Notes: generated by a model from the letters alone, not told the origin. DNA of 64,000 nucleotides from an uncultured delta proteobacterium (GCA_963802065.1 CAWDHF010000004.1:31204-95203), one strand, 5' to 3'; numbered from the stretch's first letter, positions 36,634 through 42,118 are shown. Program-made: numbers and translations.

Positions 36634-39600
36634 CTAGTGGGGCACCGCCGAGGCGGCGACGAGGTCCAGGACCATGCCGCCGGAGGCCGGCTCGACGCGG
36701 AACCCGAACCGGGCCAGGACCTCGGGCTGGAACCAGCCGGTCTCGAGCAGCTGCACGCCCCGGGCGCGCTGGCGCCGCGAGAGCTCCCGGATGATGCCGT
36801 CGGCGACTCCTCGGCCGCGGTGCTTGCGGCTCACCACGATCTTCTCCATGTGCGTGCGCTCGGGCGTCACCTGACGGTAGAAGACGCCGCCGATGACCGT
36901 GTCGTGGGCGTCCACCGCGATGAGGTGGCGGTGCTCCGGCTCGAAGGTCACCTCCAGGCTCGACTCGCGGAAGAGCTGGAGGAGCCGGGCCACCTCGCGC
37001 GGCGACCGGGCGGCCCGAACCGAGTAGGGCTCACCCTTGTCATCCGCGAGTCCCACCACCACCTCGGCGGTGAGGTGGTCGCCACGCTCCAGCGAGATGA
37101 GGGAGGTCTGATCTCCCGGCCGCAGGTGGCGGAAGGTCATCCGGGCCAGGAAGTAGTCCTCCCGGGCGTCGGGGCGGACCGCCTCCCGGAGGGTGGCCAG
37201 GTGCTCGCGGAGGTCCAGGCCGCGGTAGGGGAGCGACCGGGCCCGTGCCATCAGCCGGTCGAGCGCCGCCGCCAGGGGTGGCCGGGCGTCGGCGAAGATG
37301 GTCCGCCGGAAGAAGCGGATCCGGGTGTCGGGCCAGTCCCGCTCGACGTCGCCGAGCTGGTAGGTGGTCCAGAGCTCCCCGAGCATCGTCCCCTGGGCCT
37401 CCGACGTGGCGTTCGGGTTCACGGCCCTCCAGCGCCGGAACCGCTCGATGGCGAAGTGGACCTGGCGGGAGGTGAAGCCGTTGGTCTCGACCTGGGCCAG
37501 GAAGGCTAGCGCGGCCTCGGCGCGGGGCCCGGGCAGGAGGGAGGACAGGGCGGTGCGACCCCGTTCCAGCCCCAGGGCCTCGATGACCGCCGAGAAGCGA
37601 AGCGTCGGGTCGAGGCCGCCCTGGAGCTGGGGGTAGAGCGCCTCGGTGGGGGACACGAACGCGGTCTCGAACCGGTCGAGGACGTCGTCGAGCCTGTCGA
37701 CGGCGCCGCGGTCGGAGATGGACACCAGCCGGGCCCCGGTCTGGTAGTCGTGGGAGGGGACGATGAAGGCCGCCGGCGACGGATCGCGCAGCGCCACGCG
37801 GCGCCCGGTTCGGTCCCAGAACCCGACGTGGGCGGCCAGCGCGTTCCAGCACACGAAGGGCCACTGGTTCATGAGCCGCCGCGCCTCGCCCTTCAGGACG
37901 AAGCGGGCCAGCTGCTGCTCGACGTTCTCGCCCGGGATGAACTCCTCGGTGTAGATGCCCCAGTCCGGATGGTAGCTGCCGAAGGCCTCCACGAGCGGCG
38001 GCGGCGCGCCCGACGAGAGCAGCCAGAGGACCTCGTCGCGCAGCTCGGCGGGAGGCATGGTCTCGGCGTGGTTCACCGCGAAGTCGAAGGTCTCCCGTCC
38101 ACGCGTGGTGAGGGAGACCCGGTAGACCGACTTCCCGAGGCGTCGCCCGAGCAGGGTCACGGTGGCGCCGCCGGGCGGGATGTCGGCCAGGGAGATGAGC
38201 GAGCCCTTGCCGAGCACGAAGACCGAGCTGCGCACGAAGGTGGACTCGGAGACGGCCCGCAGGAGCAGGTCCACGGTGCGTGGGGGGAGGGCGCCCTCGA
38301 AGCGCACCACGTCGCGCCAGGTGTACTCCTCCCCGCTGGCCGGGTCGAAGGCGAGCCGGAGGTTGGGCCCCAGCCAGTGCTGGAAGCCCCGGCGGTTGCG
38401 GTCGTATTCCTCGCCCGCCCGGGCGGAGAGCAGCGGGTCCGGGTGGAAGGTGAGCCGCGCCAGCGGGATGCGCACCCGGCCGTACCAGTGCGGGTGGGAG
38501 ATGGAGTAGGCGACGGCGAGGCGCATCGCGCCCGCCAGCAGGCGGCGCTCGGAAGCGTCCTGGTCCGGGTCGAGTGCGCGCGGCGACTGGAGAGCGGCGA
38601 GCAACTCCTCGACCTGGGCCTCGGAGAGGCCCTTCTCACCGAAGGTGACGAGGTCCTCCTCGCGGAGGGCCTGGGGTCCCAGCCGGTCGAGGAAGACCCG
38701 GAGCGTCTCCACGGTGCGGGCGGGCTCCTCGGACGGGAGGAGGCTCCGGAAGGCGCGCCGCCGGATCTCCTCCTCGGGCGAGTCGGCGCAGCGTCGCAGC
38801 AGTCCGCGGGCCAGCGGGACGAGCTCCCGGCGGCCGGAGCCGAGCACCCGCTCCAGGAGGGAGAGGGCGCGGCGGGCCTCGGGGCGCTCGGCCCGGAGCA
38901 GCTCGCCGGCGGCGTGCACCGACTCCACGGTCGGCTCGTCCCGTCCCACCTCCTCGACCAGCGCCGGGGTTCTCTCCGGGTCGGGCGACTCCCAGATGCG
39001 GGGGTCGAGGCGCACCTCGCCGGTGCCCTTGGGGCGGCGGACCGCCAGGGACCGGAAGGCCTCCTCGCCCAGGAAGCGGCGGAGCCCCTCGTTGCCCAGC
39101 CAGAGGGTGGGGTGGGCCAGGACCGCACCCAGGTCGAGCACGCCGTCCTCCGGGTGGTAGGCCAGGTCGCCCACCCGGAGCGAGCCGGGCGCGCGCGGGT
39201 CGGGGCCCACCCGCAGGACGGTGCTGCCGGCCCGCAGCTGGCCGCCACGCATCACCACGTCCTCGACGAGCACGCCCAGCTCCCGCAGCACCCAGTTCGG
39301 GATTCGAAGGCCCATGCCGTCCACCGACAGGGACAGCGCCCGGTGCTGGTACATCCCCTCGATGAGGGATTTCCAGTTCTTCTCGACCACGTCGCGCTTG
39401 TAGGTCAGCTTGTGCGTGAGCTCGCCGTGCTCGACGTCGAGCGCGCGGTCGAGGATGCGGAAGGCCACCACCCGCTCGAAGGGCGCCAGGAACCGGTTGG
39501 CCGAGGCCACCAGGGAGGAGACGACGTGCTGCAGCTCCTCCGGCGACCGCTGGCGCAGCTCGGGCCGGCCCTCGAAGTTCGGCCAGACCAGCAGCGTGTT

Positions 39601-41298
39601 GTACTCGCGGTGATCCCCGACCAGGAAGGCCTGGGAGAGGTCGTCGAAGTCGCGGAAGAGGTTCTCCACCCGCTGCGGCGCGATGGTCTGTCCGGCGCGG
39701 TTCTTGTAGATCTCCTTCTTCCTGCCGGTGATGCGGAAGTGCCCCTCGGCGTCGATCGAGACGAGGTCTCCGGTGTGGAACCAGCCCTCCGCGTCGTGGG
39801 CCTCGAGCTCGTCTCCCTCGGCGTGCAGGTATCCGGGACTCACGTAGGCGCCGCGGATGAGGAGCTCACCATCCTCGGCACGGACGCAGGTGATCCCGGG
39901 GAGCGGCTTCCCGATCGACCCGTCGACGTACTCGCCCGGAGGGGTCATGGTGATGCCGCCGGTCGCCTCGGTCATCCCGTAGCCGGAGCAGAGCTCCACG
40001 CCGGCCCGGTGGAAGGCGCGGAACACGACGGGGTCGAGGTAGCCCGCCGCGGAGAGGCCATAGGCCAGCCGACCTCCGGTGAGGGCGCGCAGCTGTCCCG
40101 CCGCGGCGTCGGGGTCGTCGGGGGGCGCCTGGCGCTGCGCCGTCTCCTGCAGCTCCATCCACTTCTTCGGGACCGAGATGAAGATCGTGGGCTGTACGGT
40201 CTTGAAGTCCTCCACCAGCGAGGCGTGGCCGGTCGAGCGGGCGAAGACGTAGGTCGCACCCCACCACAGCGACCCGGACATCTCCAGGAAGCGGCCGAAC
40301 GTATGGTAGAGCGGCAGGTAGGCGAGGAAGACGTCGCCCTCGTTGACGTGCGGCAGGGCGAAGCCGCGGCAGAGCCGCTTCGAGACCAGGTTCAGGTGGT
40401 CGAAGACGATTCCCTTGGGGCGCCCGGTCGTACCGGACGTGTACATCACCGTGGCCACGTCCCGGCTTCGCACGCGTGCGGCCCGCGCGGCGCGCTCGGC
40501 GTCCTCGAATGCACCCGCTCCCTGGGCGACGGCCTGTTCGAGGGACAGGAGCCCGTGCCGGTCGGCGGCGGCGCGGGAGACCACCACGACCTCCTTGAGA
40601 TCGGGGAGCCCGGGGAGGGAGGGCAGCACCTTGTCGACCTGCTCCTCGTCGGAGACGACGAGGATGCGCGCCCCGGAGTGGCGGAGCATGTAGGCCACCT
40701 GCTCCGGGGTGGAGTTGGCCGGAAGGGGGAAGTCGACGATGCCGTTCGAGAGGCAGGCGATGTCGGTGAGCGCCGTCTCGAGCGAGTTCTCCGAGAGGAT
40801 GGCGACCTTGGGGTCGCTCTCCCCCGGGGCGAGCGCGAGCAGCCCCCGGGCGATGGAGCGGGTTCGACGCGCAAGGTCGGCCACGGTGAGCTCGGCGCCG
40901 TCATTGCCCAGCACGCGCATGGCCACGACCCGGGGATCGGTCTCCTCGCGGGACCGGAGCATGTCGCCGTAGGTGTGGTCGGAGCGCTCGATGACCCGCA
41001 CCATGAGGGCGGTCCATGGCTCGACGTCCATGGGGGCCATCGCCTCGGTGAAGGCGCGACGGCGCGTGGCGTCGAGGAGGGCGAACAGGGCACCCCGGGC
41101 CGGTTCGCGAGTCTCCGGGGCCTCGAGGCAGGCGTCGAGGCGGCCGACGAGCCCGGCGACCTCGGCGAGATCGGTCGGTCGCGCGACGAGCAACGCGGCC
41201 CGGGTGTCCTCGACGAGCGTCCGGTCGGGGGTGGCTCCGGGCTTCCAGTTCGCGGCGATGTGGGCGTAGGCGGGAGGAACGCGGTTCATGGCCCCCAC
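36634..41298 (-). CDS. 1,554-aa multidomain protein: AMP-forming acyl ligase (ANL) + uncharacterised ~790-aa region + C-terminal GNAT acyltransferase
   Basis: Single open frame with uniformly high GC3. ANL motifs [23 protein letters not shown] and GRKKEIYK lie within aa ~105-650. GNAT motif [18 protein letters not shown] lies within aa ~1455-1554. Alternative start ATG 41289. Confidence 0.85.
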
Positions 41299-41377: not shown

Positions 41378-42118
41378 GTGGGGGTACCCCGGCTCACCGA
41401 GCCCTTCGAGGCGCACAGCTATGCCGTGGACGCCTTCGGGCAACTCTCGGCGCCGGCCCTCTCCGGCTGGCTGCAGGAGGCCGCCGGTCGCCACGCCGAT
41501 CGGCTCGGGGTCGGGGTGGACGCCCTGCAGGCCCGGGGCCTCACGTGGGTGCTGGCGCGCCAGTCGGTCCTGGTGGAGAGGCCGGTGGCGTTCGGGGAGC
41601 GGGCCGAGGTGGTGACCTGGCCGAGCGGGGCGGACCGGCTGAGTGCGCTCCGGGATTTCGAGATCCGTGTGGCGGGCGAGGTGCGGGCGCGGGCGGTGAC
41701 CCAGTGGATCGTCCTCGACCTGGCCAGCCGGAAGCCGGTGCGCCCCGGGTCGGTGCTCCCCCTGGAACTCGTCGAGCAGATGGAGCACGTCCTGCCGCTC
41801 CCGTCGGGCCGGCCTCCAGCTCCCGGGCCGCCCGAGGCCGAGCGACCCTTCTCCACGAGGTACCGGGACATCGACCGGAACCTGCACGTCACCAACTCCA
41901 GCTACGTCGAGTGGGCCTGCGAGGCGATCCCGGAGGAGGTCTGGAGTTCCCGGCGGCTCCGCTCCTTCGAGGCCTTCTTCATCGCGGAGTGCCGGCACGG
42001 GAGCCGCATCCTCTCGCGGTCGTCCGCCACCGGGAACGGGCACTTCGTCCACTCGGTCGTGCGGGAGGAGGACGGGAAGGAGCTCGCGCGGCTCCGGACG
42101 GCCTGGGTCGAACGGTAG
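41378..42118 (+). CDS. acyl-ACP thioesterase family protein
   Basis: Double hotdog pattern: YAVDAFGQLSAPALSGWLQEAAGRHA...LTWVLAR...RDF.I... and YRDIDRNLHVTNSSYVEW. Start placed at GTG 41378. The listed ATG 41288 would overlap the divergent giant gene. Confidence 0.75.
   Translation: MGVPRLTEPFEAHSYAVDAFGQLSAPALSGWLQEAAGRHADRLGVGVDALQARGLTWVLARQSVLVERPVAFGERAEVVTWPSGADRLSALRDFEIRVAGEVRARAVTQWIVLDLASRKPVRPGSVLPLELVEQMEHVLPLPSGRPPAPGPPEAERPFSTRYRDIDRNLHVTNSSYVEWACEAIPEEVWSSRRLRSFEAFFIAECRHGSRILSRSSATGNGHFVHSVVREEDGKELARLRTAWVER

Follow-up and report, generated by a model that had tools for sequence, protein, structure and literature searches.

A bacterial protein family that unites an AMP-forming acyl ligase, a pseudokinase-like core and a GNAT domain in one polypeptide

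The window analysed here is a 64,000-nucleotide stretch of DNA from an uncultured delta proteobacterium (GCA_963802065.1, CAWDHF010000004.1:31204-95203), and all positions are counted from its first nucleotide. It contains a gene for a 1,554-residue protein, referred to here as the ligase-GNAT protein, in which an AMP-forming adenylating ligase of the ANL type is followed by a core of about 790 residues with a protein kinase-like fold and by a C-terminal GNAT acyltransferase domain. The protein is a genuine, conserved member of an uncharacterised family of multidomain enzymes and, judged from its relatives, the fusion is obligate and its domain order conserved across phyla. Our tentative reading, to which we give somewhat less than an even chance, is that the protein is a self-contained acyltransferase, which would activate an acid and then N-acylate an acceptor, both steps being carried by a pseudokinase scaffold.

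A single reading frame encodes ligase, core and GNAT domain

The ligase-GNAT open reading frame (ORF) runs for 4,665 nt without interruption from a GTG start, with an ATG at codon 4. The GC content at the three codon positions is 0.74/0.48/0.95 (GC3, the value for third positions, is 0.948), and GC3 is between 0.90 and 0.96 within each of the five modules of the protein. A first-pass annotation of this DNA, made from the sequence alone, had described one uninterrupted frame of uniformly high GC3, which the codon-position values bear out for all modules. Its division of the protein into a ligase, an unclassified core and a GNAT domain agrees with Pfam, where AMP-binding and AMP-binding_C_3 (residues 121-652) and a C-terminal GNAT were matched as it had predicted, and the protein motifs that it quoted are present and conserved.

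A chimeric join or other mis-assembly is ruled out because at least 1,540 codons are open in about 65 independent related loci, including the complete genome of Anaeromyxobacter oryzae Red232, where the orthologue (L073) is encoded on the complementary strand of NZ_AP025591.1 at about 6,070,871-6,075,556. An antisense ORF of 1,469 codons (37750-42159, plus strand), which overlaps both this gene and the neighbouring thioesterase gene, was rejected as non-coding; its GC1 of 0.94 and GC3 of 0.70 are the pattern of a shadow frame.

The ligase domain retains the ANL catalytic motifs

The ligase is matched by PF00501 (AMP-binding; residues 121-491, 221.7 bits with a gathering cut-off of 29.9) and by PF23562 (AMP-binding_C_3; residues 536-652, 35.3 bits with a cut-off of 20.8), and the second of these models was also matched in 30/30 diverse family members. 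The ANL motifs searched for were A3 ((T/S)SG(T/S)TGxPKG), A5 (GxTE), A7 (TGD), A8 (GRxxxxxKxxG) and the A10 lysine. All five are present, with A10 as GELTHK630, and in relatives that share only 25-40% identity each is either invariant or conserved to at least 90%; for the A10 lysine, K630, the figure is at least 90%. Most of the invariant residues in the family alignments, which comprise 30 and 37 sequences, lie within the ligase domain. In these alignments the catalytic motifs of the ligase are, without exception, under strong purifying selection.

Sequence matches in the PDB were luciferases, oxalate-CoA ligase, FadD5 and the Thermus LC-FACS. Like the eukaryote-like long-chain acyl-CoA synthetases (ACSL) and the FadD11-type ligases, the protein combines AMP-binding with AMP-binding_C_3 and has the hinge motif RKK..YK...G..IAP. 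It differs from them in carrying approximately 900 additional C-terminal residues and in falling far under all curated equivalog cut-offs; the similarity found with NCBIfam is of the generic long-chain/FadD-like kind only, and the FadD11 model NF038343 scored 216.2 bits against a cut-off of 950. The ACSL-type ligase is a candidate for the formation of long-chain acyl-CoA from a fatty acid, ATP and CoA. The extension that precedes it is partially conserved within the Anaeromyxobacteraceae and sparsely conserved across the wider family.

The core contains a kinase-like fold with degenerate catalytic residues

Residues 653-1450 are without any Pfam match. The core was not matched by Pfam or NCBIfam in the protein from the window or in 30 relatives, nor by any PDB sequence, whether a single sequence or a profile was used. 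A structure prediction followed by a Foldseek search, the check put forward in the first-pass annotation, resolved this region into a beta domain, helices and a kinase-like fold. The AlphaFold2 model of residues 653-1554, built on a 35-sequence alignment, has a predicted local distance difference test score (pLDDT) of 88.6 and a predicted template modelling score (pTM) of 0.77. It has four parts: a small beta-rich domain, an all-alpha region, a mixed alpha/beta domain and the GNAT. The pTM suggests that the C-terminal 900 residues would pack as one body with a fixed arrangement of the domains. The family-invariant residues G710, Y714 and N736 fall in the beta/helical segment, where the motifs are GDLAY and P.LW.GN. 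A Foldseek search of the PDB with the whole model returned GNATs together with PI3K, VPS34, CDC7, PRPK and the corramycin phosphotransferase. The apparent resemblance to the helical and kinase domains of PI3K (7kke, 9mhh) was discarded, the TM-scores of 0.15-0.20 being too low.

When residues 982-1397 were modelled alone (pLDDT 88.3, pTM 0.79), the best 50 Foldseek matches in the PDB were all protein kinases with a probability of 1.00. The best match was PRPK/Bud32 (7szb_A, E 3.9e-5, TMt 0.57-0.60) followed by RIO2 (1zar, TMt 0.46). In the model, this segment adopts a bilobal protein kinase-like fold. The first-pass annotation had guessed at a degenerate kinase-like fold at residues ~1045-1200; the fold is confirmed by the 50 kinase matches and its degeneracy by the residue analysis that follows. 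The atypical kinases PRPK/Bud32 and RIO2 are the nearest structures but share only 12-13% identity with the segment, and the core differs from them in having neither a Pfam kinase match nor the conserved beta3 lysine and catalytic-loop residues.

Kinase positions were assigned to residues from the predicted secondary structure rather than by superposing individual residues. N1076 occupies the place of the beta3 lysine. At the catalytic-loop asparagine this clade has A1177, and most distant relatives have asparagine. The protein has aspartates at the HRD position (D1172) and the DFG position (D1196), neither of which is conserved family-wide, and a WNK-like lysine in the glycine-rich loop, K1056, is conserved only in closer relatives, including the Anaeromyxobacter clade. 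Other residues of the fold are conserved throughout the family, namely Y1059-R1060, D1072, W1092, G1107, W1146, W1161, P1175, P1181, D1184, G1188 and S1193, and A1283, W1290 and T1333 are invariant in the C-lobe. None of the Pfam kinase families (Pkinase, APH, RIO1, Kdo and others) was matched at E <= 0.1 in 30 diverse members. An active kinase was rejected, as the beta3 lysine, the catalytic-loop Asp/Asn and the DFG aspartate are not conserved. Because the canonical catalytic residues have not been kept in a kinase fold, residues 982-1397 read as a pseudokinase-like scaffold, and the most fitting description of the core is a scaffold that contains a pseudokinase and for which Pfam as yet has no model.

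The GNAT domain has a CoA-binding loop

PF00583 (Acetyltransf_1) matches residues 1451-1517 with 27.4 bits (cut-off 20.7), and GNAT models match 30/30 diverse family members. The CoA-binding motif R/Q-x-x-G-x-G/A is present as R1494-G-R-G1497-V-A1499, and the R-x-x-G-x-G/A loop is retained in most of the family. Foldseek matched the domain to many GNATs, including PatZ (9it0) and MsPat (4orf).

The fusion is conserved across phyla

A word-indexed sequence search gave 61 clusters, and those with source names were mostly from the Anaeromyxobacteraceae or Myxococcales. A scan of species-representative genomes located 80 loci, including those of the cultured A. oryzae Red232, A. soli, A. terrae and A. 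oryzisoli. An exhaustive profile search of 1.84 billion representatives returned 431 proteins at E <= 1e-3, of which 183 reached E <= 1e-30. About 70 of the relatives are full-length (1,470-1,640 amino acids) and, at 25-40% identity to the protein from the window, have the same domain order, with the core and the GNAT at the same positions. Named sources are Candidatus Marinimicrobia/Neomarinimicrobiota, Bacteroidota, Ignavibacteriaceae and one metagenome-assembled genome (MAG) of the Pseudomonadota.

Versions of the family divided between separate genes were sought and none was found; the shorter matches are fragments and not split genes, because all of them start within the ANL domain. Split copies do occur in long-read MAGs (P0030, P0056, P0053) and are probably the result of indel or frameshift errors. 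In the long-read MAGs with loci L081/L035 (JASGJN010000017.1), L088 and L089, the gene has been called in two or three pieces, for example of 1,287 and 261 amino acids. Database entries named 'AMP-binding protein' that lack the GNAT probably come from such copies. The labels that the family carries at present, 'GNAT family N-acetyltransferase' or 'long-chain acyl-CoA synthetase', are mis-labels.

Six MAGs have two copies of the gene (L010/L048, L016/L053, L020/L056, L018/L067, L027/L060 and L015/L061) that are 68-89% identical to each other. Most of the second copies carry their own homocitrate-synthase-type (HCS-type) gene, described below, and the double copies represent either a paralogous duplication of the gene pair or mixed bins. 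A role in defence was dropped, as the PADLOC anti-phage models matched neither the ligase-GNAT protein nor the products of the adjacent thioesterase and HCS-type genes.

Activation and transfer may be consecutive steps of one chain

In the mechanism proposed here, the N-terminal ACSL-type ligase would adenylate a carboxylic acid (a fatty acid being the likeliest) and convert it to the acyl-CoA thioester. The C-terminal GNAT would then use this locally made acyl-CoA to N-acylate an amine, candidates for which are a small molecule, a lipid head group or a protein lysine. The beta/helical/pseudokinase core would not phosphorylate; its role would be to link the two active sites as a rigid scaffold and probably also to bind the acceptor or an effector. 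We infer consecutive activation and transfer in one chain because the ANL motifs are kept, the GNAT has its CoA loop, the fusion is obligate, the C-terminal model is compact and there is no obligatory partner gene. The gene is solitary in distant taxa, which fits an enzyme that carries out both steps itself.

Several points weigh against this proposal. The acceptor is putative, as is the use of long acyl chains by the GNAT, and the ligase may halt at acyl-AMP and release no acyl-CoA. The gene neighbourhoods across phyla point to no pathway. The GNAT is the least conserved module, which would be unexpected for a specific biosynthetic acceptor site. Lastly, as far as the sequences go, a self-regulating ligase would fit the architecture equally well.

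Such a ligase is the main rival to activation followed by transfer, and we consider it possible but unlikely. It would be an acyl-CoA synthetase under Pat/AcuA-like control in cis. Accumulated acyl-CoA would lead the GNAT to acylate the A10 lysine, K630, of the ligase in the same or a neighbouring chain and so turn the ligase off, while the pseudokinase/helical core would sense a metabolite or nucleotide and gate the reaction. AMP-forming acyl-CoA synthetases are classic substrates of the bacterial GNAT lysine acetyltransferases, among which Pat has large regulatory domains (PMC8556138). AcuA and its ANL target AcsA associate in a stable complex (PMC11255334). The conservation of K630, the structural matches of the GNAT to PatZ and MsPat among others, and the low conservation of the GNAT, which suits a regulatory domain better than a biosynthetic one, are all consistent with autoregulation. 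Pat-type enzymes, however, require a PX4GK context in their targets, and this is missing from the ACSL-type A10 region (GELTHK). A permanent 1:1 fusion of modifier and target would also be unusual for reversible regulation, a deacetylase is linked to the gene in none of the neighbourhoods seen, and the conserved 790-residue core would be left unexplained.

The gene neighbourhood is lineage-specific

Synteny was assessed with tblastn searches of the proteins encoded near the gene in the window against the 80 Anaeromyxobacteraceae loci, for which flanks were fetched. The features of the region are listed in Table 1.

Table 1 Features of the ligase-GNAT gene and its surroundings in the window.
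Feature	Position	Strand	Basis and remarks
Ligase-GNAT ORF, 1,554 residues	36634..41298	-	ANL ligase, beta domain, helical region, kinase-like fold and GNAT
N-terminal extension, residues 1-100	40999..41298	-	Predicted helical, weakly conserved; no Pfam match
AMP-forming ACSL-type adenylating ligase, residues 101-652	39343..40998	-	PF00501 and PF23562; core motifs intact
Small beta-rich domain (residues ~653-722) and all-alpha region (residues ~777-977)	38356..39342	-	AlphaFold2 secondary structure
Protein kinase-like fold (predicted), residues 982-1397	37108..38355	-	AlphaFold2 and Foldseek; catalytic residues degenerate
GNAT acyltransferase domain, residues 1398-1554	36637..37107	-	PF00583 and Foldseek
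Divergent intergenic region, ligase-GNAT ORF/thioesterase	41299..41377	.	
Acyl-ACP thioesterase	41378..42118	+	PF01643 and PF20791; clade-specific neighbour
Cupin_5 (DUF985) gene	42128..42628	-	PF06172, 155.6 bits
HCS-type gene, 379 residues	35486..36625	-	HMGL-like and HCS_D2 (Pfam); TIGR02146
Terminator-like GC-rich hairpin with T-rich tail	35430..35442	-	44 nt past the HCS-type stop

The HCS-type gene, absent from the first-pass annotation, starts 8 nt past the stop of the ligase-GNAT ORF on the same strand and is probably co-transcribed with it. Its product scores 443.9 bits with TIGR02146 (LysS_fung_arch, homocitrate synthase; cut-off 413.55) and 262 bits with the nifV model, under the cut-off of 462.9. 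The hairpin beyond it is the sole such site found, with 1.5 expected by chance, and is not statistically notable; as the possible end of a two-gene operon it is only suggestive. An HCS-type gene lies directly downstream on the same strand in ~72/80 loci, with a spacing of 8-60 nt, and is followed in about 35 of them by a gene for an EamA transporter. Matches to 'HNH' proteins in the tblastn searches at these loci were discarded as artefacts, because they translate the 3' end of the HCS-type gene in antisense.

The HCS-type gene is thus a conserved neighbour within the Anaeromyxobacteraceae, and the link is lineage-specific. It was not found beside relatives at 36-45% identity, nor in the Marinimicrobia, the Pseudomonadota MAG or other members; in distant relatives the ligase-GNAT gene stands alone among unrelated neighbours.

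The window also holds genes of branched-chain amino-acid metabolism. A class I fumarase gene, leuC and leuD lie in a row (12047-15745, plus strand) and ilvD (31889-33649, plus strand) is convergent with the HCS-type gene. Branched-chain genes are thus near a short synthase of putative homocitrate or isopropylmalate synthase type.

It is improbable that the function of the ligase-GNAT protein is tied to the HCS-type enzyme, in the sense that it would supply or sense the acyl- or acetyl-CoA substrate of that enzyme, or acylate and regulate it, so that entry into 2-oxoacid elongation of the alpha-aminoadipate/lysine type would come under joint control, often with an EamA exporter. The close same-strand spacing in most loci while the upstream side is scrambled, the retention of the pair in most second copies within one MAG, the recurrent EamA gene and the score above the TIGR02146 cut-off all speak for such a tie. 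Against it, the ligase is of the long-chain and not the acetate type, and synteny within one bacterial family may reflect inheritance only. Because the link is absent from relatives under ~50% identity and from other phyla, it cannot define the function of the family.

On the other side of the ligase-GNAT gene is a thioesterase gene, whose product matches both the N and C domains of the acyl-ACP (acyl carrier protein) thioesterases above their cut-offs (PF01643, 66.7 bits; PF20791, 58.3 bits). The ORF opens at an ATG at 41288, which would overlap the ligase-GNAT ORF, and the likely start is the GTG at 41378. With this start, the divergent gap of about 80 bp given in the first-pass annotation holds; no sigma-70-like site was found within it. 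The statement that the thioesterase is followed by a DUF985 cupin is correct as to the identity of the Cupin_5 gene. The two genes do not share a transcription unit, since the cupin gene lies on the minus strand and converges on the thioesterase gene.

Only in the four closest loci (L001, L002, L003 and L066), which form a clade of 85-92% identity, does the thioesterase gene lie upstream in divergent orientation; in L024 and L040 it follows the HCS-type gene and is convergent. It was not found in the fetched flanks of the other ~74/80 loci, nor near the distant family members examined. The gene immediately upstream varies widely, with 25 or more unrelated clusters represented in 54 loci, and in about 10 an RpiB/pentose-phosphate cluster is found there. 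The cupin gene is beside the thioesterase in only two close loci (L002 and L003), and L006 has a cupin homologue upstream and no thioesterase. The thioesterase is therefore not a conserved partner but at best a local add-on.

The first-pass annotation had envisaged a conserved lipid-modifying module of this divergent gene pair, in which the thioesterase would free a fatty acid, the ligase re-activate it and the GNAT transfer it; a genuine thioesterase does adjoin the gene here and in the four closest relatives, and adjacency occurs in two configurations, but with a thioesterase in the flanks of only 6/80 loci and none near distant members the module fails the synteny test that the annotation had itself set, upstream neighbours are highly variable and the cupin is encoded on the opposite strand, all of which makes this reading very improbable.

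Other genes in the window

Two ORFs with high GC3 are without a Pfam match, one of 722 amino acids (23032-25200, plus strand) and one of 653 (42649-44610, plus strand); the latter is kept beside the thioesterase or cupin gene in the close relatives L001, L003 and L066. An agmatine deiminase (PAD_porph) gene adjoins one for a carbon-nitrogen hydrolase (28459-30430, minus strand), the usual pair for putrescine formation from agmatine. An ORF of 1,035 codons (45289-48396, minus strand) has multihaem cytochrome c matches in its C-terminal third only. The phase of GC3 agrees with this frame only between 45289 and about 46600, which implies that the real gene is shorter and that other genes occupy 46.7-48.3 kb. 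A MerR-type helix-turn-helix is fused to B12-binding domains (51585-52415, plus strand), as in a CarH-like light- or B12-responsive regulator. The fusion of glutamine-tRNA ligase and YqeY (8144-11347, minus strand) matches NF011291 at residues 306-1066; its ORF has about 300 extra N-terminal codons with a lower GC3 of 0.82, and the start is probably over-extended.

Significance

If activation and transfer are indeed coupled, one polypeptide could turn free fatty acids into N-acyl products or protein acyl marks without ACP, a carrier or partner genes, by a route outside the five described bacterial GNAT classes, and a bacterial pseudokinase with a scaffolding role would be added to those known. 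It is possible, if doubtful, that the family represents a further, undescribed class of bacterial GNAT, which makes its own acyl-CoA donor with a fused, active AMP-forming ligase and has its acceptor chosen by the helical and pseudokinase platform, a domain family that neither Pfam nor the PDB contains. It would then be a stand-alone machine for long-chain N-acylation in the Myxococcota, Marinimicrobia, Bacteroidota/Ignavibacteria and others. The family defines a conserved region of about 790 residues that lacks a Pfam model and is abundant in groups of environmental importance that are poorly represented in culture, among them the marine Marinimicrobia and soil Anaeromyxobacter. The family is surprising to a specialist in acyl-CoA or GNAT enzymology, and it bears on no long-standing question.

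Comparison with known systems

The catalytic domains are known, while their combination is undescribed and the core unmodelled; the literature searched has no account of this architecture. A parallel for activation and transfer in one chain is Aas (2-acylglycerophosphoethanolamine acyltransferase/acyl-ACP synthetase), in which an ANL domain activates a free fatty acid and a fused acyltransferase transfers it. The ligase of the window matches the Aas model NF005291 weakly (94.8 against a cut-off of 1349). Aas differs in having a PlsC-type O-acyltransferase, in using ACP as the carrier, in the opposite domain order and in being membrane-bound. A GNAT and a protein kinase-like fold share one chain in the bifunctional aminoglycoside enzyme AAC(6')-Ie/APH(2'')-Ia. 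There the kinase is active, the GNAT precedes it and an ANL domain is absent, whereas the kinase-like residues are degenerate in the protein described here.

The type I enzymes Pat/PatZ (YfiQ), with which the first-pass annotation had compared the protein, are likewise large and multidomain, with an N terminus related to acyl-CoA synthetases and a C-terminal GNAT, and PatZ (9it0) is among the structural matches of the GNAT domain. The comparison stands as an analogy and not as membership of the Pat types (I/II), since Pfam shows AMP-binding and not NDP-forming acyl-CoA synthetase domains. The N-terminal domain of Pat resembles NDP-forming acyl-CoA synthetases and is catalytically inactive (PMC8556138), whereas the ligase-GNAT protein has an AMP-forming ANL domain with conserved catalytic motifs and, between its two ends, the helical and kinase-like core. 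None of the five described types of bacterial GNAT acetyltransferase has this layout, an AMP-forming ligase or a kinase-like domain (PMC8556138). A GNAT is also physically coupled to an AMP-forming acyl-CoA synthetase in AcuA-AcsA of Bacillus subtilis (PMC11255334). There, two small proteins with acetate specificity associate non-covalently, whereas the ligase-GNAT protein joins the GNAT covalently to an ACSL-type ligase, with a large scaffold in between.

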